Shown piece by piece: positions 11,948 through 35,726 of a stretch of 64,000 nt of DNA. How positions within the stretch are numbered: position 1 is the first letter of the stretch; each line of letters starts with the position of its first letter. A program made the translations under genes and the position numbers. The notes beneath the pieces were generated by a model. The model saw only the letters and a list, made by a program, of their open reading frames with translations, did no database searches and was not told where the DNA came from. This DNA comes from a phage. Where the stretch lies: assembly GCA_012401045.1 (NCBI GenBank), contig GCA_012401045.1_4704.1. One strand, given 5' to 3'.

Positions 11948-13402
11948 ATGAAACTTAAACAAAGCTGGAAAGACGAACTTCTCGCGTTAGTAAACAGCAA
12001 AAACAGTTTACAACTGACATTAGACGATGTAAAATTTGAACTAACGGCACCGGTAAGCGAAGTGCCTGGAACGGTCGTTGTTACAATCAAACCGAACGAT
12101 AATAGTCGCTACTTTAACGAGCAGTCTCTGACCTACATCCGTCGAGACATCGCTAAAAACTTCACTGGGATCCCGTTACGGGTCATCGTTAAAAAAGATA
12201 CCGCTGTAAGGGATATCATCAATACGATTGCTGAACGTTACGGATTGGTATTTGACACAGCCGTCGACTTCCTCGAATCCGAGCTGAATAAACAAATTAC
12301 GTTCGCAGACACCGGTATTAAAGACATTACGGTTCCGGTTGCAAACACGTCTTATGTTTGGGCGGGTAATCTTCAGTTCAATATTGCTAACGATACGTTA
12401 AGCTTGATTACTATCATCAAGAAAACCGATCTTACGAATCTGGTTTATCTGGATGGTGTTGAAGCTGACACATCTGGTTCGTTACTATTAGCAACCGCAG
12501 CACTTGTTAACGAACACGTAAATGAACCGATGGTTGAAAACGAAGATATCGTTAATGAATTTATTAACGTTCTTAATACTCTAGCCAAATATGGTGACAT
12601 AACCGGCGATGAATTAGATGCCGCCTTACAAGCGTACGATGAAGCAGAAAACAGGAATAAAACCACGGTAATAACTCTTGGTGATATCCAGTGTGTTGCA
12701 ACAGAAAAAGACGATTGGGAAATTGGACGTTTACGCGGTCAGATGGTTCTCGCGCTCAAATCCGATAAATACCCGGAGCCCGATAACACGTTCAGGTTGT
12801 TTACGAATGGTGGTGACGTATCGCTAACGTTAAACACAATGAAAGATATAAGTATCGATTGGGGTGATGGGAATAAAGTAACGTTGGATGCTGAAGAAAG
12901 ATACGCGCACCACACATACGCCGACAATAACCAGTACCAAATCGAAATTGTGTCTCGTACGGACCCAGATGTGCTGCGACCAAATTATATTTCTGGGAGT
13001 GAGATAACCGAAGTAATTCACTGGGCTACTACTTCAACAATAGCTCTGAATTTTGTTGGATGCGATAATTTAGCGACTGTTCCAGATGAGATCCCAACTT
13101 CGTGGACAACGTTGGACAGCATGTTTGAAAGTTGTACGAATTTGAATGATCCGTCTATCTCTAACTGGAATACAAGTAACATCACATCAATGAATGGTAT
13201 GTTCGGCGGATGCACTAAATTTAACCAACCTTTAGCTGCCTGGGATGTCAGCTCAGTAACTGACATTGGTGGTATGTTTAACGGATGCAACAGTTTTAAC
13301 CAAGATTTAAGTGGGTGGCGATTACCGTCAGGAGTAACCCACGACAATTACGATAGTGGTGCTTTCTCGTGGCAGACGGAACATAAACCGACGTTCCAGT
13401 AA
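11948..13402 (+). CDS. protein with C-terminal BspA-type repeats
   Basis: Repeats of the form MFxxCxxFNQxLxxWxVSxVTxMxxMF in the last ~100 residues. Confidence 0.5.
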   Translation: MKLKQSWKDELLALVNSKNSLQLTLDDVKFELTAPVSEVPGTVVVTIKPNDNSRYFNEQSLTYIRRDIAKNFTGIPLRVIVKKDTAVRDIINTIAERYGLVFDTAVDFLESELNKQITFADTGIKDITVPVANTSYVWAGNLQFNIANDTLSLITIIKKTDLTNLVYLDGVEADTSGSLLLATAALVNEHVNEPMVENEDIVNEFINVLNTLAKYGDITGDELDAALQAYDEAENRNKTTVITLGDIQCVATEKDDWEIGRLRGQMVLALKSDKYPEPDNTFRLFTNGGDVSLTLNTMKDISIDWGDGNKVTLDAEERYAHHTYADNNQYQIEIVSRTDPDVLRPNYISGSEITEVIHWATTSTIALNFVGCDNLATVPDEIPTSWTTLDSMFESCTNLNDPSISNWNTSNITSMNGMFGGCTKFNQPLAAWDVSSVTDIGGMFNGCNSFNQDLSGWRLPSGVTHDNYDSGAFSWQTEHKPTFQ

Positions 13403-14770: not shown

Positions 14771-17032
14771 TTACAATTCAAAATCTTCATCGATAACACG
14801 CTGGGTAAGCACTTTGTCGCTGAAGAACTCCACCTTGCGCTGATGGTATTTACGGTGCGCTTCGATAGAAGTACATACCAGATACCAGAACGTTGGCGTC
14901 ATTCCTTCAAACTTTCCTTTCAGCTGACGCAGTCGCCCCAACACCTGAATGTTACCGGTTCGTGACCCCATCGCTAATGTCATGAACGTCATCACCAAGT
15001 CAGGAAGGTCGATACCTGTACCTGCCGATTTCACCGTTGTAACGCTAATATCGTTATCCAGCAAGACCATGAAATCTTCTTCAGCGGTATAAGGACCGAT
15101 CTCTAACTCAGGGATACGTTCACTGAGATAATGCGACAACGACTTACACATATCGACGGTTGCACAATACACCAGCATCTTCATACCTTCCTGATACTGG
15201 TTCATGAAACCCTTGATAATAACGGTATAGATGAAGTTAAAATACGCGAGTTTGAGTTGCTTGTTCTTCATGATAGACTGTTCGAATATCGTGTGTGAAT
15301 AAGCTCCACCAAACCCTTTGTATCTGACTTTATCTGTACTGCGTAGTCGGTACGTTACCGCATTTACCGCAATGTATTTCTTGTATTCGCCTTTCGCATA
15401 ACGAGCTTCTTTCGGATACATCAAATACAGCATCTGTTCGATAAACGGATCATCGGATACCGCTGTTGCCGACAGATAAATGATTTCCGGAATATTGGCG
15501 TAACACTTGACCTTAAACAAGAAATGCAATGCTTCGTGACACTCGTCATGAATCAGCAAACCTATGCCGGTCTTTTCCCAAAACTCAGCGGGATGAAAGG
15601 CATATGGCGCAACGCAGTTATTCTTCTCGTAGTCCGCAATATAACGTTGGAACATGTTCAAGGAGAACAATGCGATTTTAAAGTCGAGTTCACCTTGTTC
15701 AACCAAGGTTTGAAACTCCAACATACTGTAACGAGGAATGTCGGGATGCGGTGGATCCTCCTTAGCGTTCCCGCGTATCTCGATAACGTCCCCTGGTTCC
15801 ATCCCGAAGAAGTTCAGCAGTGAGCTTCGCCAACCTGGCATATACCGTGGAGAAAGTATAATGCCTGTGCGCACACCCCGTCTGAACACGATTTCCTGCG
15901 ACATCGCGGTGTTATGCGTGACGATGTGGTCTTTAATAACATAAAGGCTTTCGTCATTGTCCACCGTGATGCAACGTGCTTTCGCTTTCACTGTCGGTAC
16001 GATGCTATCAATCGCTAAACCAGGAAGCCGGTTAACGGGGAGATCGTCTGGAACCTCAATGTCGTCAGGAATAAGCTTACGCAAATCGGAATGATAAATT
16101 AATGTCTCCATCGTGTAACTATCGATGGGGCATTTATACGCGATTCCTCCTAACTGATAAGCCAACTCCCAAACCTTGGCCGTTATCTGCGAATCGACGG
16201 TTCTGACCGCAAGGTGAGCTTGCCCGTTTCTGATTCTCAGTTCACAGCGACCTTTGATTACCGCCTTAAATTCCTCGATACCGACGAGTTCTTTCGGTTC
16301 GTAAAGTCGGATTCTTATTGGACGAGATCGAGCAGGTCTGTCGTAAAGACATTCCATGATTTCGTCCGTGCTGAGAACCTTATCGGGGTCAGTACACCGC
16401 CAGAGATGATCGCCACACGCTTCAACCATCCTACCGTCTTCAAAGAAGATAGCATGAAGCTGAATATCGTCATGATCAAATATAGCGGTTACGTTCGTCG
16501 GTAACCCATCCGCACCAACAACCTGATCCCCTACCTGAAGCTCACCAATCGGCTTCCAACCTCCTGGAACCTTCACGGGTGTGGTAAGCCGTACCGCTTT
16601 CCCTGACCCCGTTTGAGCGGTGTTTAGGCTCATTCTGAAGGGGGTATCCTTACCCCCGTCCATGTACTCCAACCATTCTTGCTGATCTTCACGCCATGGA
16701 AACTTCCATTTCTTTACGAACTCCACTTCTTTACCTGGTACCGGATCGTGATAGACGATTTCCAACCACTCTTTTCGTATCCCTCGGGAAAAGATAAAAT
16801 CCAAAAACGATTTCAACTGTTCACGGAGTAAGTATACCTCGCTATAATCGCTTCTTGCCGCGGCATACGTGTTTATGGTATCGGTAACCATTCTCCGTGT
16901 ACGAGGGTCACGCCGTTTCCTCAGATGCAAACAACGGTCTCGAAGGTAATGGCCGATAAGATGGGCAAATCGAAGTCCGTATCCGCTCAGCCTCATGCCA
17001 TGCGAGAAGACGTCGATACGAGCTAACTTCAT
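14771..17032 (-). CDS. SF2 DExH-box helicase whose P-loop is interrupted by an intein
   Basis: AQTGSGK then intein then T (restores Walker A); LIHDECHE Walker B; QVLGRLRQ motif VI; start ATG overlaps the TGA of the upstream gene. Confidence 0.6.
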   Translation of the reverse strand: MKLARIDVFSHGMRLSGYGLRFAHLIGHYLRDRCLHLRKRRDPRTRRMVTDTINTYAAARSDYSEVYLLREQLKSFLDFIFSRGIRKEWLEIVYHDPVPGKEVEFVKKWKFPWREDQQEWLEYMDGGKDTPFRMSLNTAQTGSGKAVRLTTPVKVPGGWKPIGELQVGDQVVGADGLPTNVTAIFDHDDIQLHAIFFEDGRMVEACGDHLWRCTDPDKVLSTDEIMECLYDRPARSRPIRIRLYEPKELVGIEEFKAVIKGRCELRIRNGQAHLAVRTVDSQITAKVWELAYQLGGIAYKCPIDSYTMETLIYHSDLRKLIPDDIEVPDDLPVNRLPGLAIDSIVPTVKAKARCITVDNDESLYVIKDHIVTHNTAMSQEIVFRRGVRTGIILSPRYMPGWRSSLLNFFGMEPGDVIEIRGNAKEDPPHPDIPRYSMLEFQTLVEQGELDFKIALFSLNMFQRYIADYEKNNCVAPYAFHPAEFWEKTGIGLLIHDECHEALHFLFKVKCYANIPEIIYLSATAVSDDPFIEQMLYLMYPKEARYAKGEYKKYIAVNAVTYRLRSTDKVRYKGFGGAYSHTIFEQSIMKNKQLKLAYFNFIYTVIIKGFMNQYQEGMKMLVYCATVDMCKSLSHYLSERIPELEIGPYTAEEDFMVLLDNDISVTTVKSAGTGIDLPDLVMTFMTLAMGSRTGNIQVLGRLRQLKGKFEGMTPTFWYLVCTSIEAHRKYHQRKVEFFSDKVLTQRVIDEDFEL
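15911..16597 (-). mobile_element. intein, 229 aa, class-3-like (Ala1, Trp/Cys/Thr triplet)
   Basis: Hint blocks GWKPIGELQVGDQVVGADG, CITVDNDESLYVIKDHIVTHN then Thr; inserted between Lys and Thr of GSGKT. Confidence 0.6.
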
Positions 17033-19035
17033 AACGTGATTACATCCTCCGGTTTAGGTTCTTTACGCGGTAACAGCATGTAGTCGATCGGATGATCCGG
17101 CTTCATGGTTGGGATATAACTGTTCGGGTTTTGGAACGCATCCAGTTGCTCTTGGTGAGCGAACTTCATACTCAAGGAGCGCATGTTCATGTTCTTCTTG
17201 AAGGTACTGAAGTATCGTGTTGTTCCCTGTTTCGGCATGCGATAATCTTTCGTGTGTGGCGAACGAATCATGCTGGCGTAGAGAATAACATCGAGATGCG
17301 AAAGGTTCATTCGTAGGCGCTGGGCACACAGACGATGCCAATAATACAGCACGTTTGCAACTTCTTCCGGTGTTGCTTCGTCTTCCGAGAGGAATCCGGC
17401 ACTGAAAGAACCTTTCCCGAATTTGAATTCACGTTCGATTTCTTTTGCGTACTCCATCATGTTTTTGTGGATTAACGGCATCTGGAATAACATACGTGAA
17501 TTGTCCCAATGTTTCAAGTCGAAAATCACAATCCCGTCAGACGTCACTTCCCAGCTATGGCGTTTAAGATAACGGATAAACGCTTTACTCGGTACAACAG
17601 GACGGCCGCAGAAATCGAAATTGACTTTGAGCTTACGATAGCTTTCATCTTTCCTGTCGTAAATCTCCATATCGCAAAGCGTCATGTTAAACAGACGTTG
17701 CGGTATCAGCGAACCGATTTCTTCCGCTTCCGCTACGTCGTACAACATGTTTGCAAGACCTAACTTCATCTTAATCAACACGTGTTTACCTTTCAGCTCA
17801 CGTGCGAGTTTGATGTCGTTCATGTTCTGGCTATAGCGAAGGATATGTTGATATTCCGGTGGGATTGGTGCTGTGGATACCGTTGACGAACCATCGTGGT
17901 GTTTGGTAGAAAGAATGTTCTGCGTTACCTGTTGCGAACAGGTACGCGCTGCACCATCGCCGACATTATCAGTCAATGCGAAGTTATGGCTTAATTCACC
18001 ATAACACGTCGTACATACCCCAGCAGGATCGGGATGATGACAATAGTTAACGGAGCGCATGCGCACCGTCGTGCCGATCAATTCTTTCATGTGTGGTTGT
18101 ATCGCTACCAACGAACCGTCATCACGAATAATGAATCGACCATGGAAGCCACGCAGGTCGGTCTCATCACGGATTGGCATCGGGATGGTCTCTTTACTAC
18201 CACAATCACCAGGATGAAGTCGTTGTACAACCGCTGTCGCTATCTGAAGTTCACGACCGAAATATTCAGACTTTTTAATCTGCTCTTTGTTGAACAGCAA
18301 CGATTTCGCCGCAGAACGACTTTCTTTCAAGCTGTCGGGAAGAGAGATCAAACCAGCTGCGTACGACCGCATTACTGGATCACGGAATATCTCGGAGTTA
18401 ATATCAGTCAAGAATCCACGCATCCCAATACACTGTAGCACCTGCCCAATCGAAACGTGTTCGGTTCTTACCGCACGTGCAATAGGGTTTGCATGTAACG
18501 TTTTATCGGTGCTCAGTACCTTGGTCAGTTTCTTGTATGCGCTTTCGATACCTTCACGGGTGGGTTCCGCTTCGGCGATGATTTTCTTAACTTCGGGGTG
18601 TACAGTAATCTGATAAAAATCATCCGCGCAAATCGTTGTTACGTATTCCTCCAACGCATACGTAAAGAAGTTATACACATTGTTAAACATATCGAACAAT
18701 GCTTTCCAGAGAACCTCACGATTCTCTTGTGGGTAAGCATACATGCATTGACGATACGCGGCGCTTTGCAACGCAACCGATGAACCCGCTGTGAACTTGC
18801 GTTTATCAACCAGGTTCTCTTTTGTCAGTGGTGTCTCAGGATACATGCGATGCACAGACCAGTGCATGTAACTAAAGAAAATGCGTCGCGCACGCAATTC
18901 ATGAACGCCATCGTCCATCTCGATATATACACGGTCATTAGGCTGTGCCCACTCGAACACCTCATCAACCGGCCAATGCATAAGCTCGCGTGCCCTCACA
19001 CGACGTTTCGTGGTGGTCGTCTGTGTTATAGTCAT
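17029..19035 (-). CDS. multisubunit RNA polymerase beta-prime, C-terminal fragment
   Basis: CHHPDPAGVCTTCYGEL...GDGAARTCSQQVTQNIL aligns to E. coli beta-prime CDTDFGVCAHCYGRD...GEPGTQLTMRTFH; GMRG and PGDC match the bridge-helix region. Confidence 0.65.
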   Translation of the reverse strand: MTITQTTTTKRRVRARELMHWPVDEVFEWAQPNDRVYIEMDDGVHELRARRIFFSYMHWSVHRMYPETPLTKENLVDKRKFTAGSSVALQSAAYRQCMYAYPQENREVLWKALFDMFNNVYNFFTYALEEYVTTICADDFYQITVHPEVKKIIAEAEPTREGIESAYKKLTKVLSTDKTLHANPIARAVRTEHVSIGQVLQCIGMRGFLTDINSEIFRDPVMRSYAAGLISLPDSLKESRSAAKSLLFNKEQIKKSEYFGRELQIATAVVQRLHPGDCGSKETIPMPIRDETDLRGFHGRFIIRDDGSLVAIQPHMKELIGTTVRMRSVNYCHHPDPAGVCTTCYGELSHNFALTDNVGDGAARTCSQQVTQNILSTKHHDGSSTVSTAPIPPEYQHILRYSQNMNDIKLARELKGKHVLIKMKLGLANMLYDVAEAEEIGSLIPQRLFNMTLCDMEIYDRKDESYRKLKVNFDFCGRPVVPSKAFIRYLKRHSWEVTSDGIVIFDLKHWDNSRMLFQMPLIHKNMMEYAKEIEREFKFGKGSFSAGFLSEDEATPEEVANVLYYWHRLCAQRLRMNLSHLDVILYASMIRSPHTKDYRMPKQGTTRYFSTFKKNMNMRSLSMKFAHQEQLDAFQNPNSYIPTMKPDHPIDYMLLPRKEPKPEDVITL

Positions 19036-19180
19036 TATTGCTTTCCGATTTAAATGGTTTTATCATACGGTTTACCAAATCCGTTGGACTTTACTATCGT
19101 TGTGATAGCATCGGGAATCCCTTCCCTTAGGTTATGTAGGTGTTAATATATCTCCACTGCTGACCTTTATGTCGGCAGCA

Positions 19181-19666
19181 CTATCCAGCTTTCTGTTGTA
19201 AAGCGTATGGATCCATAGCGTCTGACATATCCGCAAAAACGGTGAGAATAAACCCCTTTATCTGTCTCACCTCGGTTACACGAAGCCCTTTATCATTGCG
19301 ATATACGTTTTCTTCACCGACTAACTTTGGTCGAATAACATAAACTCCATCAACAAGCGGGAATGTCGGATACGGATAAATACCAATACGAATGATGTTT
19401 GGGTGATCGCCTAGAAGGTCACGTCCAAACTTATCGACTCGACCATAAATCGCCCCATCCGCACCTTCCACTTCAATGAGATCATTTCGAATATCCTGAA
19501 ATAGTTGCTCTAACGTGTCGGCGGGATACGTATATGCGATGCCTAACGCAGGATCCTCGATCGTTTTGACACTGAAACCGTTAAGCCAAACAATCCGTTC
19601 ATCCGCCCATGTTTCTTCATATACCGTTAATCCATCGCCGTATATGTTGGCGTGTGCTATCTCCAT
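19181..19666 (-). CDS. hypothetical protein (161 aa)
   Basis: ORF track. Confidence 0.45.
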   Translation of the reverse strand: MEIAHANIYGDGLTVYEETWADERIVWLNGFSVKTIEDPALGIAYTYPADTLEQLFQDIRNDLIEVEGADGAIYGRVDKFGRDLLGDHPNIIRIGIYPYPTFPLVDGVYVIRPKLVGEENVYRNDKGLRVTEVRQIKGFILTVFADMSDAMDPYALQQKAG

Positions 19667-19779
19667 AATCTCATTTCCTCTTCTACGTAGAAATAGATGA
19701 CATGTTGGATATACGTTGCCTTTGCATATATTGCTTTATTTCCGTCAGAAATAACGGAAAATAAAACAACGACATAGTT

Positions 19780-19809
19780 CCCTCCCACCTCCACGTGGGA
19801 GAGGGAGGG
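19780..19809 (-). terminator. CCCTCCC...GGGAGGG hairpin with internal CCACGTGG palindrome
   Basis: Intergenic inverted repeat between 19823..20185 and 19181..19666. Confidence 0.35.
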
Positions 19810-19822
19810 CTATTCGTGTTTA

Positions 19823-20185
19823 TTACTCTATGCTATCTTCGTCCGTATCTTCCTCTTCAGAACCATCGAACGTTTTCTGCACCGCTGTGGTATCCCAGTT
19901 AGCTGCGTAATCAGCCATCGCTTCGCGCAGCGCTTCTTCACCAGCATCACCAGCCAGGTCAAGTACAACTAAACCCTGTGCGACGTTTTGAGCAACGGTA
20001 TCGATAACGGTTGCATCTTCTTCAAAACTACGTACCGGTTCAATGGTACCTACATCAACAGCGTAGTTCGTGGTTGCTGTAAGCACGGCGACTTGTAGCG
20101 CATTGCTATCTTCATCATGCAGTGCTGCTTCAATACCGATTGGACGAGCCAGTTCTTGCAGTGTTAATTTGCGAATTAAGTTCAT
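19823..20185 (-). CDS. small acidic protein, paralog family member
   Basis: Shares LxLQELxR and GLxxLxLxGxxG patterns with 20218..20565 and 20683..21093. Confidence 0.45.
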   Translation of the reverse strand: MNLIRKLTLQELARPIGIEAALHDEDSNALQVAVLTATTNYAVDVGTIEPVRSFEEDATVIDTVAQNVAQGLVVLDLAGDAGEEALREAMADYAANWDTTAVQKTFDGSEEEDTDEDSIE

Positions 20186-20217
20186 TATGTTTTCCTCAGG
20201 TGAATGTTAGCAATCGT

Positions 20218-20565
20218 TTAAAACTTTAAAACTTTTTCGATACGATGGTTGACAAGTTCATTGAACGACTCTTCAACTTGTTCAATGATTTCATCAACGT
20301 CGATATCTAATTGTTGGGGTTGGATAACATGCTCTTTCATGGTTTCCAGCCAGTATTCGGCTTTAACCATGACGTTAGCGACGTGTTCGACCTGGCTGCG
20401 TATGTCGACGATCTGGCAGTCAGGATTGTTAATGTCGATGATGTGTCCGTGGTGGTTGATAAAACCTAGCTTGTTTGATGCCCTTACTGCATCACGAGTC
20501 AGTTCTTGCAAAATTAAATTATTGACGTAGTTCACTGCTACGGAACGATTTTCATTATCACTCAT
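20218..20565 (-). CDS. small acidic protein, paralog family member
   Basis: ORF track; N-terminal NNLILQELTRDA resembles neighbours. Confidence 0.45.
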   Translation of the reverse strand: MSDNENRSVAVNYVNNLILQELTRDAVRASNKLGFINHHGHIIDINNPDCQIVDIRSQVEHVANVMVKAEYWLETMKEHVIQPQQLDIDVDEIIEQVEESFNELVNHRIEKVLKF

Positions 20566-20642
20566 ACCAGGGATCCTTTTAAGTCTTCACATTCTAGTGT
20601 TAAGCAGTTAAAATAAACCGTTCCTTTAATCAGCATAAACAT

Positions 20643-20671
20643 CCTCCTCCCACCACATGGGCAGGAGGAGG
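20643..20671 (-). terminator. CCTCCTCC/GGAGGAGG hairpin followed by TGTTTATG
   Basis: 8-bp inverted repeat between 20683..21093 and 20218..20565. Confidence 0.4.
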
Positions 20672-20682
20672 CGTAATATGCA

Positions 20683-21093
20683 TCAGAAAGGAGGACGATC
20701 TTTAAATTCTAACAACGTGTCTTCGAAGCAAGCGATGAGTTCAGACTGCAATTCGGTACGGCCTTGTTCACCGAAGAGTTCCAGCAACATTAACCCCCGA
20801 GCGGTCTTCGTAGCAACCTCTTCGCAGATGCGGAGATCGTGAACTTCATTATCGTTGACATCTTTGCGTAACTGCGCTGCGATAGGCTTAAGATTGCCGT
20901 TTTCATCGTGTTCGTCACGAAATGCATCATAAGCCGCATCGATGTTCGCGATCCGTGTCAATCCTTCAGAATCCCGCCAGTCTCGATATAATCCAAGCAG
21001 GCGATTATGATTCTTCGTTTTGATGTTCGGTGCTGGAAGGTTGCGCAACAGATGTGGTGTAATCATTGCTATCACGCTATCCGAATGATCCAT
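20683..21093 (-). CDS. small acidic protein, paralog family member
   Basis: ARGLMLLELFGEQGRTELQSEL parallels AQGLVVLDLAGDAGEEALREAM in 19823..20185. Confidence 0.45.
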   Translation of the reverse strand: MDHSDSVIAMITPHLLRNLPAPNIKTKNHNRLLGLYRDWRDSEGLTRIANIDAAYDAFRDEHDENGNLKPIAAQLRKDVNDNEVHDLRICEEVATKTARGLMLLELFGEQGRTELQSELIACFEDTLLEFKDRPPF

Positions 21094-21104
21094 CGTATAC
21101 CTCG

Positions 21105-23273
21105 TTAGCTTTCGCAGTCATCTGCGTCGATGATTTGTCCGCCAGCAACGTTCAGTTGATGATACAGAATCCTCAACGCACGGTTGCCACCAATGGGATA
21201 CTTCTCGAAGTTGGTTGCGATAGGAATCGCTGACGGCTTATCGGTCGCATAGATGCTTTCAGTGATGCTATCCACCTGTTTTGGATTGTTCGCATAATCC
21301 ATAAAGACGCTTGCGAACCATCCGCCAGCAAAGGCGGTCACTTCGCGATGTTCAGATTCACCACAGTAACGAGTCGGTTGCTCTTTACCCGGAGAACTGT
21401 ATTTATCGCTATTACTGAGCTTCGACGGTAATCCATGCGCCTGCAATTTAGGGATACCCACAGCTGACCAATCGTTCGCCGTCTTCTCCAACATCATGAT
21501 GTACGTGTCACCGATCGCAATATCGTTCTTGGTTGTCCGCCACTGCCCAGAACGTCCACGATACCGTACAGGACCTTTCTTCAACGGGAACTCACGAATC
21601 AGATTCTCCATACGTTCTGAACCTGCTGCGATACTGTCCGTCGGGATATAAACTTCCGTACCATGGCGTTGTACGTACCGTAAATGATCCCATTTATCCT
21701 CATCCGTGATACAGTATTTTTCAACAACCTGTTCCACGAATTCAGGACTGACGATATAGTAGTAGCGCATCAGTGTGTTCCAAGCGGTCTCCAGATCGCC
21801 TGCATCCATCACCGGTTTCAGTTCACGCATGATCTGATCACCAACACCGTTGATGTACGGTGCGTTAACACGACTTAAACTCATCCTTTTGATTACCGTG
21901 CTATCGTCGAACATAAAGTCCGCAACGTTACCCCATTGGTCAACCGGCATTTCATCGTCTTCCATGATGTCGGTTACAACGAATTTATCACCCGCCATAC
22001 CGGTGAATTTAAACCCGATACCTGGGACAACGTCATACGTGTATGTGATGGTCACACGCCAATCATCGAGATTCTCTTTGCGGTAATCGCGGGTTGGTAA
22101 CACATGACGTAGCTGTCCGTTGGGATTGCGGATATCAATACCATGTTCAGCATCAGCCAGGTTCAACCACCACATCACCGTTTGATGATGACGTATCGGC
22201 GTACCAACGCGTTCACGTTCGTACTTACGAACAGCATCCTGAATTCGGGTGTAAAGCAAACCGATTGCGTTCTCGTATTTCAGGAATTGACGATACGGAG
22301 GACGCATCTTCTCTTCCATCATAATCGCACGCTCGCGGGCTTGACGTCCAGAACGACGATGTCGGTCGCTGACAACATCGATATCCGTTACACGCGCATT
22401 CGGTTCCGCGTAAGTGAGATCATCGTAAACATAATCCACACGCTGAAGGTTACACGTCATCATGTCAACAACGCTGAGGATAGGATCGATTTCGCGTGTT
22501 GCTGCAAGTAACCCATCCTTACGAATACGCTCACCGTTCTCGGGTATTGCTTGATATACCTCATCATCACCGTAGAGATTGATTGGGTATCGTGATTTAC
22601 CTGATGTGATCGTTCGCTTCTCAATGCCGGTACTGGTGAAATGCTTCAATACACCACGACGGGCAACACCACCATCCTCGATACACTGATAGAAGCTACC
22701 GAAACACACTTTGCAATCGCGACCGTAACCCCACTCGCGCGTTTCTTGATTGATCGCTGGGCTTTCCATCAAACGAGAATATCGCGGTACGATCTGGCCT
22801 CGACGAAGGGAATGGAACAAGTTGGTTGGTCGAAAACGGAAACCGTACTGCTGATGCATGATGTGATGCTCAGGCACTTCAAGCAAGCGTAGCTCGTGGC
22901 GGTTACCATCCTCTTGGTTTTCGTACAGCACGTAATGCATCGTGTTTGTTTTGATGCTGTTTGCTGTATGCCCCGGTTGGAAACGTGGGATGATATCTAT
23001 GATGCGAGATTCGACTGGAAACTCTACTGACCACGTGTTCTGTCCGTACTGGTATTCGATCCCCGTCGTCAGTCGGGACGGTTTCGCATCTTTGATAACC
23101 AACGCTTGGCTAAGATGTCCACCAAACATCGCAGCGCGCTGTGCTGAGTTATAATGCAGTAGCCCGTTAAGTCCAGTCCCTACGCCAGTATACTCCTGTT
23201 TAATGGGAATGATTTTACCTTCAGCGATTGCCTGCTTCACAGATTCATAAAGAGGTTTTTCTTTATAATGCAT
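21105..23273 (-). CDS. possible RNA polymerase beta-like subunit (C-terminal module)
   Basis: GMAGDKF and RYCGESEHREVTAFAGGW loosely resemble beta GDK and GGQRFGEMEVWALEAYGA; start placed at ATG 23273 (AGGAAG 4 nt upstream) instead of track start 23438. Confidence 0.35.
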   Translation of the reverse strand: MHYKEKPLYESVKQAIAEGKIIPIKQEYTGVGTGLNGLLHYNSAQRAAMFGGHLSQALVIKDAKPSRLTTGIEYQYGQNTWSVEFPVESRIIDIIPRFQPGHTANSIKTNTMHYVLYENQEDGNRHELRLLEVPEHHIMHQQYGFRFRPTNLFHSLRRGQIVPRYSRLMESPAINQETREWGYGRDCKVCFGSFYQCIEDGGVARRGVLKHFTSTGIEKRTITSGKSRYPINLYGDDEVYQAIPENGERIRKDGLLAATREIDPILSVVDMMTCNLQRVDYVYDDLTYAEPNARVTDIDVVSDRHRRSGRQARERAIMMEEKMRPPYRQFLKYENAIGLLYTRIQDAVRKYERERVGTPIRHHQTVMWWLNLADAEHGIDIRNPNGQLRHVLPTRDYRKENLDDWRVTITYTYDVVPGIGFKFTGMAGDKFVVTDIMEDDEMPVDQWGNVADFMFDDSTVIKRMSLSRVNAPYINGVGDQIMRELKPVMDAGDLETAWNTLMRYYYIVSPEFVEQVVEKYCITDEDKWDHLRYVQRHGTEVYIPTDSIAAGSERMENLIREFPLKKGPVRYRGRSGQWRTTKNDIAIGDTYIMMLEKTANDWSAVGIPKLQAHGLPSKLSNSDKYSSPGKEQPTRYCGESEHREVTAFAGGWFASVFMDYANNPKQVDSITESIYATDKPSAIPIATNFEKYPIGGNRALRILYHQLNVAGGQIIDADDCES

Positions 23274-23304
23274 AGGACTTCCTATTATCGAATTGAGGTA
23301 CGTC

Positions 23305-23658
23305 ATGTCTAACACGCCCCTGAACGACTTTCTTAAGACAAACCCCGATGACCTCATCCACGATCTTGATTTCAGGAACGTTGTTGAGATGCATCTGGAA
23401 TATTTCAAAAATGCCGGACTGGTCTCTACGATAGACATACCACCCGAACGCGCCTACGAATTCGATGGTAACTTTTATGGATTGTGTCGTGTTCTGCTCG
23501 GTGAGGGCAGTGAACCAATGCACTGGATAACCATGAGACTCAATGGTTATCGCGACCCTACGGAATACACCGCCGATGTTCTAACCATGAAGATTGTCGA
23601 TACAAGCGCAATCAACACATTAAAACAACAGTACCGCACAATCCACTACAGCGCTTAA
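23305..23658 (+). CDS. hypothetical protein (117 aa)
   Basis: In-frame ATG at 23305 with GAGGT upstream; divergent from 21105..23273 with a 31-bp gap. Confidence 0.45.
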   Translation: MSNTPLNDFLKTNPDDLIHDLDFRNVVEMHLEYFKNAGLVSTIDIPPERAYEFDGNFYGLCRVLLGEGSEPMHWITMRLNGYRDPTEYTADVLTMKIVDTSAINTLKQQYRTIHYSA

Positions 23659-23723: not shown

Positions 23724-25004
23724 TCAGAAACGATTCACAGTACGTCCTGTCCACGCGCTCAGGATGTTGTTACGTTCCATCTCAGCACGACGACGTAAAC
23801 CGTTTGGCGACTGCGGTGCTGGCGGCATCCCCCAGCCAGCAGGTTGCATGCCCATGCCTGGCCAAGCAGCATTATTGAACATCGTACCGTTACGTTCCGC
23901 AACACGGTTCATCAACGCATCAAACGTGCTATTACCTGCCGGTTGGTTACCGCCGCTTTCCCACTGATTAGGTTGGACAGGTGCGGTTTTACCTAACAGG
24001 TTATCGATCACACTGCCTGTTGAAGCAGGACGCGGTTGCATACCTTCATGTGCGGCTGCCGATGGATTTGGCTTAACCGTCGGCTGCGGACGACTGTTCA
24101 GCGTTACACCCATGTTGTATTTCGCTGGCGGAATCTGACCACGATGTTGATTGATCGGTTCAAAATCCTCAACCCAGGTAACATCACAGTAGCCGTTCTC
24201 TTTACCGTCGTACTTATCACCAAACAGTTTGATGAGATTGTTCAGCGGTTCCATCAGCTTAGCGAAGCTGTGGATAAGACAATCGAAATACGGAGCATGA
24301 GGATCGCTTGACCCAGCGTTGTACGTTTCACTTACCTCACCCGCGTGCGGGATAACGTACTCAACCAGGTTTCTCAGCATGTTAAGATCTTTCTTGGAAA
24401 TCTCAACACCACACCAATACGTTTTCTTATCTTTCGTGCTGATGTGTTCTTCTTCCATGAACGGGAAAGTAACGACCGCAACACGGGTCATCTTCTTACC
24501 CATGTAGGTTGCGCCGGTACGACGAAGATAAATTTTGGACAGCGTATACGGTGTGTCGCGTTTCAGCCAAACGGTGACCAGTTTACCCAGGGTCGTTAAT
24601 GTTTTATCGCTGGCGTCCGCAAGGATGTTGAAGAACTCTTTTTGCTTCGGTCCGAAACGTTTTGCTTCTTTAGGATTGATTGCGGTTTCAACCATCCAAA
24701 TCAGCATGGAGCATAGCGTGGCGTTAAAACGAACAACCATCGCACGACGCAGGAACTGAAGTACTTCCGATTCGCCGTTCATCACGTCTTCACTTAGCGG
24801 ATGGAACAGCACACGTTCAGCCAGCTGATTTCCGGTACGGACTTCGGAAACCGGCATCAGCAACGGCATGCTTTCCACGGTAGCGGCAACTGCAACAACT
24901 TTACCATCCCCATCCGTAAAACGATATTCTAATTCGTGGGCGTCATTCTCAAAATAGTTAACGCTCTGTAGTGCTTTGCGATAAGCTTCGATAAGCTTCG
25001 ACAT
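23724..25004 (-). CDS. hypothetical protein with Gln/Pro/Gly/Met-rich low-complexity C-terminus
   Basis: ORF track. Confidence 0.5.
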   Translation of the reverse strand: MSKLIEAYRKALQSVNYFENDAHELEYRFTDGDGKVVAVAATVESMPLLMPVSEVRTGNQLAERVLFHPLSEDVMNGESEVLQFLRRAMVVRFNATLCSMLIWMVETAINPKEAKRFGPKQKEFFNILADASDKTLTTLGKLVTVWLKRDTPYTLSKIYLRRTGATYMGKKMTRVAVVTFPFMEEEHISTKDKKTYWCGVEISKKDLNMLRNLVEYVIPHAGEVSETYNAGSSDPHAPYFDCLIHSFAKLMEPLNNLIKLFGDKYDGKENGYCDVTWVEDFEPINQHRGQIPPAKYNMGVTLNSRPQPTVKPNPSAAAHEGMQPRPASTGSVIDNLLGKTAPVQPNQWESGGNQPAGNSTFDALMNRVAERNGTMFNNAAWPGMGMQPAGWGMPPAPQSPNGLRRRAEMERNNILSAWTGRTVNRF

Positions 25005-25059: not shown

Positions 25060-26646
25060 TTAGAAGTTGCCTTTGGTAGTTACCGCATCCACCAGGTTAA
25101 ACAAATCAACGCTCAGCTTATACACCTCCTGCTGGCTACGGTTGAGCAGCGGGCTGTATGCAGATGGGTTGATGTTCGGCATGGTGTACGGAATCGGTGC
25201 AGAACCGTCAACGCTGATCTTGAACTGGCTGTCCAGGAACAGGTTAATCGCGCCGCTCACCATAACCGCATTCGGGTTGTTGCCCAACATGGAGGGTAGG
25301 ATATTGGTAATCATGTCAGAACGCATTTGTTCAGCAGCACGGTTACAATCGTATCCTTTAATGAACGGCACAGCGTCGGTAACCGCAACCGCCCACTGAC
25401 CAGGCATGATACCGAGTTCTGGGTGACCATGGTTGTCAGCAATGAAACGGAACGATTCCAACATGCGGTATGTCATCGCAGCAGGCATCATTGCAGCAAG
25501 CGATGAACAATACAGCGTTGGATAATCGATCACATCCCAGCTCTGGCTATCGGTCGGCATCCAACCAAACTCGGTGGTTGCTGATGTACCACGACGAGCT
25601 TCCACATACGGGAATAACGTTAAGACATCACGGATATGTTCACCGAACATCCGTTTCATGTCAGCCCAACTCAGGCTACCGCTGAAAGCGAATCCTTCAT
25701 CACGCATAATCGCACCGAATACCGGATGCGCAACCAGAGGTTCTTCACGAACAGCTTGAGCGGCTTCCACGTAAATATCCTCGTTCTCTGCGCTACCTGG
25801 ATGAGACCCGCTTTCGTACGTCTGACGAATAGCACCAACATTATCGAAGGCTTTTCTTAGATAAATGGTTGGGATGTTCGTATCGGCACTAGCGGGTTTG
25901 ATTTTCTCTGTTGCGAAACACATTGCCGCTTCCACACCACGGAAAACCGGTTCCGGTTGCGGTGGGTAGGATGTACGATGAACCACATCAGCGTAGGCGG
26001 GATCGAACTGTTGCATCACGTTCTGCATGGCTGGGTCCATGAACTGGTTATCAAAACCACCATTGCCTACCCAACGTGCTGTTGATGCATAGGTCAGCGT
26101 ATCCTGAACACGAGTACTGAACTGAACATCACGATTAACAGGGTCGTATGCGCCGGTCAACAGGTTCGTTGCGTCCATCGGGGTTGCACGAACGATTTGC
26201 TTACCGAACATATCCGTTGTGGTTGTTTCGGTTACCTGGATTACGTTCGTGAAGAAGAACACCAGTTCATTCGGCAGATCGATAGCACGCGTTGTAAACG
26301 CATCGAGGCTTACAGAATGGTCGGTGTATCCAGAAATGTAATGGACACGCTTGGTTCCTGGTGCGAGGGCCAAGGATTCTTCTACCGCCATCATGAAATG
26401 GAAACGGCGTGTGCCCCAACCATTCGCAATCTCCGAAACCCCCTCAGGTTCTGCAGACTGCTGCAACAAACCGGTTGCAAGCTTATTGATTGCTGATGGT
26501 GTTGTTGCCGTACCGAACCGCGTCGTGTTAATGAAGTCTTCGATGCTACGCATGCTATCTGCGTGGAATCGTAGTGGACGACGTTGTACGTTGTTGTACG
26601 GTGCGGTTTCAACCATCAGTATTTCACGAACATTCATCGGGATCAT
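25060..26646 (-). CDS. hypothetical protein (528 aa), possibly structural
   Basis: ORF track; no recognisable motif. Confidence 0.5.
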   Translation of the reverse strand: MIPMNVREILMVETAPYNNVQRRPLRFHADSMRSIEDFINTTRFGTATTPSAINKLATGLLQQSAEPEGVSEIANGWGTRRFHFMMAVEESLALAPGTKRVHYISGYTDHSVSLDAFTTRAIDLPNELVFFFTNVIQVTETTTTDMFGKQIVRATPMDATNLLTGAYDPVNRDVQFSTRVQDTLTYASTARWVGNGGFDNQFMDPAMQNVMQQFDPAYADVVHRTSYPPQPEPVFRGVEAAMCFATEKIKPASADTNIPTIYLRKAFDNVGAIRQTYESGSHPGSAENEDIYVEAAQAVREEPLVAHPVFGAIMRDEGFAFSGSLSWADMKRMFGEHIRDVLTLFPYVEARRGTSATTEFGWMPTDSQSWDVIDYPTLYCSSLAAMMPAAMTYRMLESFRFIADNHGHPELGIMPGQWAVAVTDAVPFIKGYDCNRAAEQMRSDMITNILPSMLGNNPNAVMVSGAINLFLDSQFKISVDGSAPIPYTMPNINPSAYSPLLNRSQQEVYKLSVDLFNLVDAVTTKGNF

Positions 26647-28235
26647 TTTATTTTTTTTCCTCTTAAATTTACTACGTGTTCATTTAATCGAACAACTAAT
26701 TGCACAAGCTGCTGACGGATATCTGCTGGACAAAGCATCAATCCTTTACGGTCAGCTGGGACTTTCTCAAGGATTTCCGGGCCTGCTGCTGAAACATCCC
26801 AGTCCCATTCACAAAACGCATCGGCCACCATGTTAATACCGACAACCGGTAAAGTTGTACGTTCATCTTCATACATGGCGTGTGGATACAATTTATTGAC
26901 AGTAATGATCTCCTGTGGTTTTAATTGGTGGATAATCTGATAAACATCGTCGCGTTTGACCTGGATACCTACGGTCAGCGCGGCCAGTTGAGGAAAACCC
27001 CAATGGTCTAACAAACAAGCTGCGATCGCTAACGCTTTTGCCTGATGCACGGCTTCAATCGGTGCCAGACTTCTCGCCGGAAGATGGCTATCAAGCAACC
27101 ATTGCGCCAGTGCTCGGCATCCGCGGTTGATTGGTTTTAACTCAACGGTGTCATCGTGTTTAGCGTACGTGTATCCGTCGTAACGTTTTGCGATACGCGC
27201 ATACATGTCTTCAACTTTACCGTAAGGTGCCGTTTCGTCGACGTCGTGCAACACACGTTCCATCTGGGTAAGATACGCAATGTCGAGAATGAGTACACGT
27301 GGTGAACGTTTATCTTTCACCATCAACGCATCAATCACGCCTTGACTGTCTTCATCTTGCGCATTCCCTCGCGGCGTTTTCTCGCGAATCGGTCCGCTGA
27401 AACGTCGTTCCGTACAAAGGTTATTCACATAGCTGAAGATCAGTGTTACTAGATGCGTACAACTCACTAACACCCCATCTTTAACGACAGGCTGTACAGC
27501 TTGGTCCAAGTCGCGTACGGCGAGACGGCGGACGATGGCTTGTGAACGCAACCAGCCGGGCACTTTCTCCGTCGACATGTAATCCACGGTCATCGACAGC
27601 GTGATCTTTTTATCACCCGTCTGTGCGCGGATATAGTCTTCCAGTCGGTCGTAAGCGGCGATATCATGAATGCGTGTTTTATACATCAACGACATAGCCA
27701 CTTCTTCTTTACGAACCGTTCCGTACGTTTTCCCTGCGTCAATCAGAAACTCTGCCCAAATCGGCACCATCAGACGGACGTAGATCGCTAACGCCGTTAA
27801 CTCAACGTAATCATTTCGTAAATAGGTTTTCTCAGGTATGTCATCCTCACCTAATGTTGTTTTCATGTCCGGTGGTAATTTTACCCAACCTGGGGTATTA
27901 CACAATGCCAGAATCTCTTCGTACACAACCGGTTTGTAAATTTCACCAACAGCGCGACTCAACTCCTCCATTTGTTGTTGTGGAGCAATGTAGTTATCCA
28001 TCGCTTCACGTGCTTTAACGAACCCTTCGAAGATGTCGTCAATTCGACGTGGGTTCTTTTGTTCTATCCAGGCGAGATACTTGTTAATCTCCCGCATCTG
28101 ATTGCTAGCCATATCCCCATCAATCTTGATGTAACCCTGACCTGAAAATTCCACAGTACGTCCATCACGGTGTTTGATGAGATAGTGATCCAGCTTTTCT
28201 TTTCCTTGCGTCGTAATGACGGGCACTATGTGCAT
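26643..28235 (-). CDS. hypothetical protein (about 530 aa)
   Basis: Start moved to ATG 28235 (MHIVPVITT, GAGG upstream), which sits about 60 nt below the promoter-like motif; track start was 28370. Confidence 0.5.
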   Translation of the reverse strand: MHIVPVITTQGKEKLDHYLIKHRDGRTVEFSGQGYIKIDGDMASNQMREINKYLAWIEQKNPRRIDDIFEGFVKAREAMDNYIAPQQQMEELSRAVGEIYKPVVYEEILALCNTPGWVKLPPDMKTTLGEDDIPEKTYLRNDYVELTALAIYVRLMVPIWAEFLIDAGKTYGTVRKEEVAMSLMYKTRIHDIAAYDRLEDYIRAQTGDKKITLSMTVDYMSTEKVPGWLRSQAIVRRLAVRDLDQAVQPVVKDGVLVSCTHLVTLIFSYVNNLCTERRFSGPIREKTPRGNAQDEDSQGVIDALMVKDKRSPRVLILDIAYLTQMERVLHDVDETAPYGKVEDMYARIAKRYDGYTYAKHDDTVELKPINRGCRALAQWLLDSHLPARSLAPIEAVHQAKALAIAACLLDHWGFPQLAALTVGIQVKRDDVYQIIHQLKPQEIITVNKLYPHAMYEDERTTLPVVGINMVADAFCEWDWDVSAAGPEILEKVPADRKGLMLCPADIRQQLVQLVVRLNEHVVNLRGKKIK

Positions 28236-35133: not shown

Positions 35134-35370
35134 TTAGCAATGGTTGTTAGTTGCTTCTATTTCATCAAGATACGGTTCTACGTCATCGCCCTCCACGAAT
35201 TCGTTGAACCAACAGTCAATGGTAGAAATAACCGGCGACTGGTGTTCACATTTCTTAGATACCTTAAAAGGTACGTTATTATCCATCATACCGAGTTCGG
35301 GTCGAAAACGCCCGAAATGTTTCGCAGTCCAAATGTCTGGGACGATATGGTTGTTCATCGTAGTGTTCAG
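35134..35370 (-). CDS. RNA polymerase beta-prime N-terminal subunit, distal exon or separately translated piece
   Basis: TTMNNHIVPD...ELGMMDNNVP aligns to E. coli beta-prime QMAVHVPL...ALMMSTNNIL, the segment that follows DFDGD; 5' boundary uncertain (35367, 35370 or 35379). Confidence 0.45.
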   Translation of the reverse strand: MNTTMNNHIVPDIWTAKHFGRFRPELGMMDNNVPFKVSKKCEHQSPVISTIDCWFNEFVEGDDVEPYLDEIEATNNHC

Positions 35371-35713: not shown

Positions 35714-35726
35714 AGCGTCACCGTCG
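35714..35726 (-). CDS. 13-nt micro-exon CGACGGTGACGCT supplying the DGD of the catalytic motif
   Basis: Joined to exon 1 it reads NADF-DGD-A; its first four bases are complementary to the GUCG that sits directly 5' of the intron-1 guide sequence. Confidence 0.45.

Follow-up and report, generated by a model that had tools for sequence, protein, structure and literature searches.

Genes for the non-virion RNA polymerase in a Goslar-like jumbo phage, and a catalytic-site partner gene apparently split by two group I introns 13 bases apart

The window analysed here, a 64,000-nucleotide stretch of phage DNA, contains on its minus strand a set of genes whose products are homologous to subunits of the non-virion RNA polymerase (nvRNAP) of phage phiKZ. 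The beta-prime C-terminal subunit (17029..19035; 668 aa) is a homolog of phiKZ gp74 and of gp165 of Escherichia phage Goslar, and the beta C-terminal subunit (21105..23273; 722 aa) is a homolog of phiKZ gp71-73 and Goslar gp171. An earlier note on this DNA had read the former as the C-terminal fragment of a split, phiKZ-type beta-prime and the latter as possibly beta-like; both ORFs are real at these positions of the minus strand, and both assignments are borne out. In particular, the beta-prime C-terminal product carries the GMRG of region F (residues 204-207), the bridge helix and trigger helix, zinc-site cysteines at positions 278, 332, 341 and 344, and the segment CHHPDPAGVCTTCYG (residues 332-346); this segment is the one noted before as CxxxxxGVCxxCYG, but the actual spacing is C-x6-GVC, not C-x5. 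The product matches the RNAP family profile PHROG 3015 (E 2.6e-169) and phiKZ gp74 in the solved enzyme (PDB 7OGP_D; E 3.4e-86), residues 11-654 aligning with 4-671, and the stop codon of its gene overlaps the start of a helicase gene (ATGA).

The product of 21105..23273 matches PHROG 3295, likewise an RNAP family profile (E 2e-180), and aligns over its full length with phiKZ gp71-73 (PDB 7OGP_C; E 1e-85). It includes GFKFTGMAGDKF (residues 420-431), which holds both lysines of the double-psi beta-barrel (DPBB), RYCGESEHREVTAFAGGW (residues 635-652) and a GE-x-E motif, and is a true beta fragment, the C-terminal half, with the second DPBB and its two DNA-contacting lysines. In tblastn, phiKZ gp71 and gp73 map to the contiguous stretches 23177..21990 and 21950..21141; the gene is uninterrupted here, whereas in phiKZ and PhiPA3 it contains an intron (phiKZ gp72). 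Although the ORF at its longest reaches 23438, the ATG at 23273 is preferred because it is preceded, 5 nt upstream, by the Shine-Dalgarno sequence AGGAAG, matches the Goslar annotation and avoids overlap with the plus-strand gene 23293..23658.

The comparison with phiKZ and AR9 polymerase subunits that the earlier note had proposed gave, in addition to the full-length phiKZ matches, weaker but significant matches to AR9 (E 1.3e-13, 3.4e-17 and 2.7e-8), and the similarity of both ORFs to RNA polymerase subunits is far beyond chance. Residues 193-386 of the beta-prime piece also align with residues 137-347 of the 1323-aa beta-prime chain 8GZG_Z. Direct similarity of the pieces to the cellular beta and beta-prime subunits is weak: the beta piece scores E 0.0065 against Escherichia coli beta. 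Pfam profiles yielded no family on the beta-prime C-terminal piece and only Rpb2_6 on the beta piece (E 0.0056, below the Pfam cut-off); a generic profile search, if made with Pfam alone, gives a false negative for these genes.

The fifth nvRNAP subunit, which is sigma-like and integral to the complex, is encoded at 26643..28235 (minus strand); its product is a homolog of phiKZ gp68 (PDB 7OGP_B; E 5.7e-28, with residues 68-563 aligning with 20-517) and the equivalent of Goslar gp175. Its start is likely the ATG at 28235, preceded by AAGAGG, with the longest ORF reaching 28370. Between the beta and beta-prime C-terminal genes lie, on the same strand (19181..21093), four ORFs of 115-161 aa and a tiny ORF annotated only in Goslar, where this group is listed as hypothetical gp166-170. 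No PHROG or Pfam family was found for any of these ORFs, and they are not polymerase parts; in phiKZ, by contrast, gp73 adjoins gp74 with no genes between. The helicase next to the beta-prime C-terminal gene carries a 229-aa intein that its Goslar counterpart, gp164, lacks.

The beta-prime N-terminal gene, which adjoins the chimallin gene and matches phiKZ gp55, had been taken for a single ORF at 35134..37359; it is not continuous. Exon 1 (36104..37359, minus strand), which matches phiKZ gp55/56.1 (PDB 7OGP_A; E 5e-62) as well as PHROG 2987, ends in GGT TAT AAT GCC GAC TT (G Y N A D plus two bases of the Phe codon), and the unspliced reading frame stops at 36088, within an intron that interrupts NADF/DGD (here and below, a slash marks a splice site). 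This 377-nt intron 1 (35727..36103) is followed by a 13-nt micro-exon 2, CGACGGTGACGCT (35714..35726), that completes the Phe codon and then encodes Asp-Gly-Asp-Ala of the catalytic NADFDGD, by the 355-nt intron 2 (35359..35713) and by exon 3 (35134..35358), which runs from MNNHIVPDIW to the stop codon and whose spliced translation aligns with the C-terminus of phiKZ gp55/56.1 (E 1.2e-18), all on the minus strand. Removal of 36103..35727 and 35713..35359 yields a coding sequence of 1494 nt (497 aa) with the in-frame NADFDGDAMNNHIVP, which rebuilds NADFDGD and matches phiKZ gp55/56.1; the predicted junctions are GACTT/CGACGGTGACGCT/ATGAAC and the predicted junction peptide is GYNADFDGDAMNNHIVPDIWTAK.

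Neither intron contains an ORF, and both score below the Rfam gathering cut-off of 50, intron 1 at 49.3 bits (RF00028; E 3.6e-11) and intron 2 at 20.9 bits (E 0.012). In intron 1, P1 pairs CCGACUU with GAGUCGG and P10 pairs CCGUCG with CGACGG, and other alleles show two compensatory exon/guide changes in P1. The P1 hairpin of intron 2 pairs GCU/UA with UAGGC, the pair at the splice site being U-G; the last base of each intron is G. In the covariation analysis of intron 2, 98.8% of cells are paired and both sides have changed in 23 of 67 pairs, a level reached by none of 500 shuffles. Intron 2 is a homolog of the phiKZ gp56 intron, with which it shares its 3' tail. Both intron sites are empty in three related contigs (L033, L038 and L039), and L022 lacks intron 1; the naturally empty sites show the predicted junction sequence, and in alleles without these introns the micro-exon bases directly abut those of the flanking exons. 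In some related contigs three introns are crowded into 28 nt, and among phages that are nearly identical the occupancy of four insertion sites varies.

We consider it almost certain, from these sequence features, that the beta-prime N-terminal gene consists of three exons interrupted by two group I introns. The gene could instead be a truncated pseudogene that ends at NADF, with 35134..35373 a separate small gene and the N- and C-terminal pieces giving no working enzyme: ORF 36088..37359 does stop within the catalytic motif, both Rfam scores fall short of the cut-off, and the Goslar RefSeq record leaves the three exons unjoined, annotates only one intron (the second being missed) and lists the 79-aa ORF 35134..35373, which begins inside intron 2, as the independent hypothetical protein gp185. 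This is very unlikely, given the restored match to phiKZ, the pairing of P1 and P10 with the exons and the P1 changes between alleles, the empty sites with the junctions as predicted, and the viability of Goslar as a phage; furthermore, the 23 compensatory pairs in intron 2 include some in the hairpin covering the very start of the supposed small ORF. Still less probable, indeed hardly credible, is a single intron of roughly 745 nt (or a twintron) in place of two independent introns around a real exon. The ribozyme cores are merely 13 nt apart, and so short an exon is unusual, but removing the whole interruption at once would take the DGD codons with it and leave the outer exons out of frame (1256 + 225 nt does not divide by 3), the micro-exon supplies precisely the missing residues, and the introns occur independently, intron 1 being absent from L022, L033 and L038, intron 2 from L033 and L038, and both from L039.

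The earlier note regarded it as undecidable whether the N- and C-terminal pieces belong to the same polymerase, virion or non-virion. Chimalliviruses encode both enzymes, the position of the beta-prime split is common to the two (PMC7598289), and motifs alone fail to separate them, so both ORFs might be subunits of a virion-packaged polymerase co-injected with the DNA, of the phiKZ gp80/gp149 type. The chance of this is minimal. Against gp74 the beta-prime C-terminal piece reaches 293 bits, compared with 5 bits against its virion paralog gp80, and gp80, the sole virion subunit tested, has no tblastn match anywhere in the window; in 311 phage records there is a single matching place each. The gp68-gp75 synteny is exact, and in Erwinia phage RAY the ortholog bears the annotation nvRNAP beta-prime subunit 2 and is located in the phage nucleus (10.1101/2023.02.24.529968). 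The virion assignment is already contradicted for the beta-prime C-terminal piece, which is the one the gp80 comparison covered. The phiKZ chain matches, the gp50-gp75 collinearity and the preference for gp74 over gp80 settle the question: the N- and C-terminal pieces belong to one enzyme, the nvRNAP, and on the same grounds four of its five subunits (beta-prime C-terminal, beta C-terminal, beta-prime N-terminal and the sigma-like fifth subunit) are assigned to the window; the gp123 homolog, which forms the beta N-terminal half, lies outside it.

There is little room for doubt that the window is a segment of the genome of a Goslar-like (Goslarvirus, Chimalliviridae) nucleus-forming E. coli jumbo phage, holding the conserved nvRNAP block. 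Its DNA identity to Goslar (NC_048170) is put at 95-98%, with a span of 91.6-98.2% over the 42 kb compared; the polymerase genes are the same and in identical order, and the protein identity is 99.4-100% for the four polymerase proteins (gp165, 666/668 residues; gp171, 722/722; gp175, 527/528; gp247, corresponding to the beta-prime N-terminal piece, 423/423). The Goslar RefSeq label for these genes is 'RNA polymerase beta subunit', and the two C-terminal genes are already known and annotated as parts of the phage's second RNA polymerase, the one that is not packaged. phiKZ gp50 to gp75 match the window collinearly in tblastn, from 42910 down to 14792, and the chmA-nvRNAP-ChmC block has already been described (10.1101/2023.09.22.559000). 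Compared with the phiKZ nvRNAP (gp55, gp68, gp71-73, gp74 and gp123; 7OGP), the window proteins are full-length homologs at only about 24-31% amino-acid identity, yet the catalytic, zinc-binding and DNA-contacting residues are conserved: the four zinc-site cysteines, GMRG, the DPBB lysines and DFDGD, whose roles in phiKZ are documented (PMC8287921, PMC4666361), are all present.

The sole unusual feature nearby is the catalytic-site partner gene, split by two predicted self-splicing introns with 13 bases between them. HNH-encoding group I introns occur in the RNAP genes of chimalliviruses, namely, phiKZ gp56, gp72 and gp179 and PhiPA3 gp210 (PMC11620839, PMC10914365). Splicing of the homologous predicted introns went undetected in the phiKZ long-read transcriptome (PMC10914365); the purified phiKZ enzyme contains the fused (spliced) products (PMC4666361), and the PDB chain names concur. 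The window introns share with these the self-splicing type and a position within the best-conserved coding parts of phage RNAP genes, but here two are stacked, both ORF-less, with three in other alleles. The phiKZ beta-prime N-terminal gene has a single HNH-bearing intron at AAT/GCT, as opposed to the two window introns at TT/C and GCT/ATG, and intron 1 lacks the 1066-nt stem-loop of its Goslar counterpart, in which a 14-bp stem immediately ahead of the 3' splice site holds the HNH endonuclease gp186. Staphylococcus phage Twort likewise has more than one self-splicing intron in a single gene, orf142, which reportedly contains three group I introns; in the present case, the internal exon is only 13 nt long and encodes active-site aspartates.

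Among more distant relatives, Bacillus phage AR9 has uracil in its DNA and differs in its promoter-specificity subunit. Its nvRNAP (PDB 7S00/7S01) shares the split beta/beta-prime architecture, but AR9 is much more distant from the window than phiKZ and lacks chimallin. The gamma/beta-prime split of cyanobacteria follows the DPBB domain and coincides in position with that of the phage enzyme (PMC7598289), although that enzyme is cellular, has alpha, omega and sigma subunits, and its beta is unsplit. The spliced product of 37359..35134 would supply the beta-prime N-terminal half, whose DFDGD loop binds Mg. By homology with phiKZ, the injected virion polymerase would transcribe the genes described here early. 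What is expected of assembly, timing, nuclear location and rifampicin resistance is carried over from phiKZ, PhiPA3 and RAY, at only about 30% identity. By that homology, the five polypeptides would then assemble without alpha or omega into a rifampicin-resistant enzyme, and this nvRNAP would work inside the chimallin-bounded phage nucleus, transcribing the middle and late genes.

The 668-aa ORF at 17029..19035 (minus strand, as are the genes around both polymerase ORFs), which the earlier note had read as the C-terminal piece of a split beta-prime subunit of the phiKZ type, shows end-to-end homology to phiKZ gp74, chain D of the solved phiKZ non-virion RNA polymerase (nvRNAP; PDB entry 7OGP; E 3.4e-86, residues 11-654 to 4-671), and matches PHROG 3015 over positions 3-652 of 653 (E 2.6e-169), so this reading is borne out. 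The weaker PDB matches of this protein, hereinafter beta'-C, were to the AR9 nvRNAP and to bacterial beta-prime (query residues 192-398 to approximately 733-958). All motifs quoted in the earlier note were found in the respective ORFs. In beta'-C, GMRG occupies residues 204-207 and precedes the bridge helix by approximately 25 residues, and CxxCYG belongs to the zinc site; the conserved segment, CHHPDPAGVCTTCYG (residues 332-346), is present as proposed, except that its spacing is C-x6-GVC rather than C-x5. The zinc-site cysteines 278, 332, 341 and 344 align with the phiKZ ligands C288, C341, C350 and C353 (PMC8287921), and the bridge-helix and trigger-helix segments are conserved. Thus, full-length homology, region F, the helices, the zinc site and the gene location all place beta'-C in the gp74 family.

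The beta'-C stop codon overlaps the start codon of the downstream gene (ATGA, 17029..17032), a superfamily 2 helicase homologous to phiKZ gp75 (14771..17032, minus strand); gp74 and gp75 of phiKZ overlap as well, and this shared arrangement suggests conserved translational coupling of the two genes. The helicase contains a precise, in-frame insertion of 229 aa (15911..16597) inside the Walker A motif (GSGK/T), which is missing in the Goslar counterpart, gp164. Its first residue is Ala, and its last residues, ...VTHN, precede a Thr, as in the layout of inteins; with a Cys present in its penultimate block (ARCITVDND) as well, the insertion looks, judged by its motifs, like a class-3-type intein. 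Residues 117-392 of the helicase also produced PHROG matches to terminase, primase and helicase-loader families, which probably reflect inteins in the matched families.

The second ORF, which had been flagged as beta-like on the strength of weak motifs, is similarly homologous to the spliced phiKZ gp71-73 (7OGP chain C; E 1e-85, residues 88-767 of the long ORF to 17-692) and to PHROG 3295 (E 2e-180), with AR9 as a weaker PDB match. The longest ORF, 21105..23438, comprises 777 aa counted from the first ATG; however, the ATG at 23273, which yields a protein of 722 aa (21105..23273, minus strand), is the likelier start given that the Shine-Dalgarno sequence AGGAAG lies 5 nt upstream, the same start is used in the Goslar annotation, and the overlap with the plus-strand gene 23293..23658 is avoided. 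Within this protein, beta-C, the segment GFKFTGMAGDKF (residues 420-431) aligns with afKmtdfhggKg of phiKZ, such that the lysines of the double-psi beta-barrel (DPBB), K422 and K430, correspond to K386 and K394; RYCGESEHREVTAFAGGW is found at residues 635-652. Full-length homology together with both DPBB lysines places beta-C in the gp71-73 family. The profile comparison with the phiKZ and AR9 subunits proposed earlier yielded significant matches to the former and weaker ones to the latter. Pfam, by contrast, is nearly blank: no family was recovered for beta'-C, and for beta-C there was only a weak match to Rpb2_6 (E 0.0056, 16.3 bits, below the cut-off of 23.4), comparable to the weak similarity to E. 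coli beta 1063-1241 (E 0.0065). Although a lack of profile similarity to RNA polymerases had been named as the outcome that would speak against the polymerase reading, we do not hold the Pfam result against it because the PHROG and PDB searches are decisive.

The beta-C gene is unbroken in the window, unlike the phiKZ and PhiPA3 genes, which contain an intron (10.1101/2023.09.22.559000). Furthermore, the beta-C and beta'-C genes are adjacent in phiKZ but are separated here by four to five small ORFs (19181..21093, minus strand), namely, four of 115-161 aa and a tiny one annotated in Goslar only; none of these belongs to a family in PHROGs or Pfam. Between two of them lies a GC-rich 12-bp hairpin (20643..20671) with a poor T tract.

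The earlier note left undecided whether the N-terminal and C-terminal pieces of beta-prime belong to the same polymerase, virion or non-virion. In phiKZ, the nvRNAP is a five-subunit, rifampicin-resistant complex that is absent from virions (PMC4666361); beta-prime is made up of gp55 and gp74, beta consists of gp123 (N-terminal half) and gp71-73 (C-terminal half), and the fifth, sigma-like subunit is gp68 (PMC4666361, PMC8287921). The beta'-N ORF, located beside the chimallin gene (37452..39347; Pfam Chimallin, E 2.8e-27), matches phiKZ gp55/56.1 (7OGP chain A; E 5e-62), and ORF 26643..28235 matches gp68 (7OGP chain B; E 5.7e-28). A tblastn comparison with phiKZ gp50 to gp82 gave collinear matches to gp50, 52, 54, 55, 56.1, 59, 62, 65, 66, 67, 68, 69, 70, 71, 73, 74 and 75; in particular, the block gp68-gp69-gp70-betaC-beta'C-helicase is conserved downstream of chimallin and beta'-N. 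For ORFs 23724..25004 and 25060..26646, no relatives were found in the PDB, and the only matches are to phiKZ gp70 and gp69, respectively. The affiliation with the virion enzyme is not supported: phiKZ gp80, the virion counterpart of beta'-C, had no tblastn match anywhere in the window, and in a direct phmmer comparison beta'-C scored 293.4 bits against gp74 and 5.2 bits against gp80, the one member compared of the virion set gp80, gp149, gp178 and gp180. In addition, the beta'-C ortholog of Erwinia phage RAY carries the annotation nvRNAP beta' subunit 2 and localises to the phage nucleus (10.1101/2023.02.24.529968). From homology and gene order, the question can be decided: the N-terminal and C-terminal pieces belong to one enzyme, the nvRNAP. 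Because of the 7OGP chain matches, the collinearity with phiKZ and the preference for gp74 over gp80, we conclude that the window encodes four nvRNAP subunits out of five and that the gp123-like beta-N is encoded elsewhere in the genome; no further RNA polymerase piece was found in the rest of the window, which contains DNA polymerase, PhuZ, terminase and structural genes. The large terminase subunit (55987..58218, minus strand, 743 aa) matches PHROG terminases over the first approximately 210 residues only (9-180, 25-212), the remainder having no listed family. The earlier placement of the start of the C piece at about the end of the N piece agrees with a beta-prime split after the DPBB domain, the point at which the cyanobacterial subunit is divided into gamma and beta-prime (PMC7598289).

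By analogy with phiKZ, the injected virion RNA polymerase would transcribe these early genes, and the five polypeptides would subsequently form an enzyme that lacks alpha and omega subunits. The DFDGD Mg2+ loop would be contributed by beta'-N, the second DPBB domain by beta-C, and the bridge and trigger elements along with the zinc site by beta'-C, while the gp68-like protein presumably replaces sigma and would be needed for the active centre and promoter binding (PMC8287921). Within the chimallin shell, the complete nvRNAP would be expected to transcribe the middle and late genes.

The polymerase genes themselves are already known, being annotated in a studied phage genus and having homologs with solved structures. 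The best tblastn match of beta'-C among the deposited phage genomes is Escherichia phage vB_EcoM_Goslar, with 99.7% identity, followed by chimalliviruses at approximately 30%. The window is collinear with Goslar (NC_048170), the nucleotide identity ranging from 91.6% to 98.2% across the 42 kb examined, and the four polymerase proteins are nearly or fully identical to their Goslar counterparts (gp165, 666/668; gp171, 722/722; gp175, 527/528; gp247, 423/423); gp165, gp171 and gp247 are already labelled "RNA polymerase beta subunit" in RefSeq, and the chmA-nvRNAP-ChmC block has been described, with Goslar gp176 as ChmC (10.1101/2023.09.22.559000). Given this annotation, and with the phiKZ homologs purified and solved by cryo-EM, the polymerase finding adds little that is new. 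In the literature searched, we found no RNA data for Goslar-like phages and no paper on the Goslar introns or on the Goslar polymerase subunits one by one. What the analysis chiefly adds is that every polymerase piece in the window can be firmly assigned to the non-virion enzyme, which is useful for chimallivirus annotation inasmuch as Pfam profiles nearly miss these proteins; its second contribution is to recognise the partner gene, beta'-N, as an apparent three-exon gene. The window differs from Goslar by the intein-like insertion, a missing intron ORF and one divergent stretch. The latter is found in a leucine-rich repeat (BspA-like) gene (11948..13402, plus strand), the C-terminal part of which (12495..13370) has no blastn match to Goslar despite flanks that are 92-95% identical; this difference may reflect the exchange of a receptor-binding or surface module.

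One point needs correction: the N-terminal piece of beta-prime, 35134..37359, is not a single ORF. The ORF, 36088..37359, ends in ...GYNADF-SFFN, with the stop within the catalytic motif. An Rfam search of the whole window at gathering thresholds yielded no families, and a tRNA scan found no tRNAs; only in a local Rfam scan by E-value did two group I intron matches surface, in tandem, one to RF00028 at 35727..36094 (49.3 bits, E 3.6e-11, 0.7 bit short of the gathering score) and the other at 35413..35723 (20.9 bits, E 0.012). In the resulting model, all on the minus strand, exon 1 (37359..36104, ending ...GAC TT) is followed by intron 1 (36103..35727, 377 nt), exon 2 (35726..35714, CGACGGTGACGCT, 13 nt), intron 2 (35713..35359, 355 nt) and exon 3 (35358..35134, starting ATG AAC AAC CAT). 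Removal of the introns restores the reading frame and gives ...GYNADFDGDAMNNHIVPD within a modelled coding sequence of 1494 nt and 497 aa (...GYNADFDGDAMNNHIVPDIW), with the predicted junctions ...GCCGACTT/CGACGGTGACGCT/ATGAACAAC and the predicted tryptic junction peptide GYNADFDGDAMNNHIVPDIWTAK; the phiKZ counterpart at the catalytic loop is NADFDGDQLNLTLMPD and that of E. coli is NADFDGDQMAVHVP.

Evidence was found for each intron. Intron 1 has a textbook internal guide sequence, in which GAGUCGG forms P1 with the exon 1 terminus, CCGACUU, placing a U-G pair at the splice site, and CCGUCG forms P10 with CGACGG, where exon 2 starts; its last base is G; two related Goslar-like contigs (L011 and L035), with exon CAGAUUU and guide GGAUCUG, show two compensatory changes in P1. 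In Goslar, the final G of intron 1 is directly preceded by a 14-bp stem whose loop encodes the HNH endonuclease gp186; the window has ACA instead of this stem-loop. In intron 2, GCU/UA pairs with UAGGC (P1), and the intron ends ...ACUACG. A group I structure drawn by hand (P1-P9.2, including P3 and P7) has 98.8% of cells paired across five homologs, and 23 of the 67 pairs are changed on both sides, a count reached in none of 500 shuffles and compared with 1-2 in slid controls, in an alignment of five sequences of which three are near-identical and one served for drawing the structure; alignment A1, with phiKZ and intron A (an additional intron of related contigs), was excluded from the pair counts as its central parts are misaligned. 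Thus, the interruptions of beta'-N show the group I core, the P1 and P10 pairings with U-G and terminal G, and restoration of the frame. Apparently, then, beta'-N is a three-exon gene in which, as recognised from the sequence, the catalytic loop would be rebuilt by the predicted removal of two introns.

An initial model of intron 2, with CGACGGTGAC as exon 2, exon 3 starting from CGACTCATG and the junction DGD/RLMLNTT, was rejected: homology of the 3' tail with the phiKZ gp56 intron extends as far as the terminal G (...ACTACG), the hairpin formed by AUGAG and CUCAU covaries, C would be the last exon base, and the alleles with an empty site read GACGC[A/G]ATGAAC. Goslar has only one intron annotated in RefSeq, and exon 3 is given there as a separate hypothetical gene, gp185; this 79-aa ORF starts inside the covarying hairpin of intron 2. 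When deposited phage genomes were searched at the DNA level for relatives of the introns, Goslar and PhiPA3 were the only hits, the latter with a match of 87 nt.

Close relatives differ strikingly at the beta'-N intron locus. In IMG/VR and among metagenome contigs, pattern scans identified eleven Goslar-like contigs, Goslar included, of which ten are readable here, so that, counting the window, 11 of 12 near-identical genomes and contigs can be read across the beta'-N loop. The eleven readable sequences carry one, two or three introns in mixed combinations, with or without HNH genes. Introns 1 and 2 are both ORF-less in the window, whereas in Goslar intron 1 harbors the HNH gene; intron A precedes introns 1 and 2 in five contigs (L011, L035, L036, L037 and L040; in L037 and L040 the layout was taken from motif positions and the sequence itself). 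Another additional intron, B, is combined with intron 2 in L022 and is the only one in L033 and L038, where sites 1 and 2 are empty; L039 has intron A alone, with a 323-aa HNH ORF, and empty sites B, 1 and 2. The loci span 300-1620 in L011 and 4180-5100 in L022, and the additional introns score 26-30 bits in Rfam. In the three-intron alleles, both internal exons are 13 nt long (ATAATGCAGATTT and CGACGG[T/G]GA[C/T]GCT). The empty sites match the predicted junctions exactly (for example, GACTTTGACGGCGACGCAATGAAC and ATAATGCTGATTTCGACGGGGACGCGATGAAC), and all nine fully parsed alleles yield the same peptide, GLSVMILKGYNADFDGDAMNNHIVPD. In L022 (4617-4640), the last exon base before the intron 2 homolog is C (GAT GCC/AGAGCC...), paired with G instead of forming U-G, and the first intron base is changed in compensation (U-A to A-U).

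The four insertion sites, T/AT, GCT/GAC, TT/C and GCN/ATG, all fall within the codons for KGYNADFDGDAM, and the intron of phiKZ beta'-N occupies a fifth, AAT/GCT. We consider it reasonably likely that the 30 nt encoding KGYNADFDGDAM, the Mg-binding loop of nvRNAP beta'-N, are an insertion hot spot for group I introns in Goslar-like phages. Introns A, B and 2 represent one family, each following GGGU or GCU and containing the matching guide sequence of 3-4 nt; the occupation of three sites by these paralogs suggests that reverse splicing or ectopic homing, directed by this very short guide (GCU or GGGU), spread them between neighbouring sites. We found no description of the stacked-intron arrangement in the literature searched, a non-exhaustive search, and claim no priority.

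This by-product of the analysis, namely, catalytic-loop codons with stacked introns of variable occupancy, is more interesting than the polymerase genes themselves. If the hot spot is real, the stacked introns could play a part when co-infecting phages compete, a role that has been shown for the gp210 intron of PhiPA3. The locus appears to be a natural system for the study of intron competition for one conserved target and of splicing accuracy across micro-exons, and would also bear on whether, as proposed (PMC7598289), intron mobility helped to split the RNA polymerase genes of jumbo phages.
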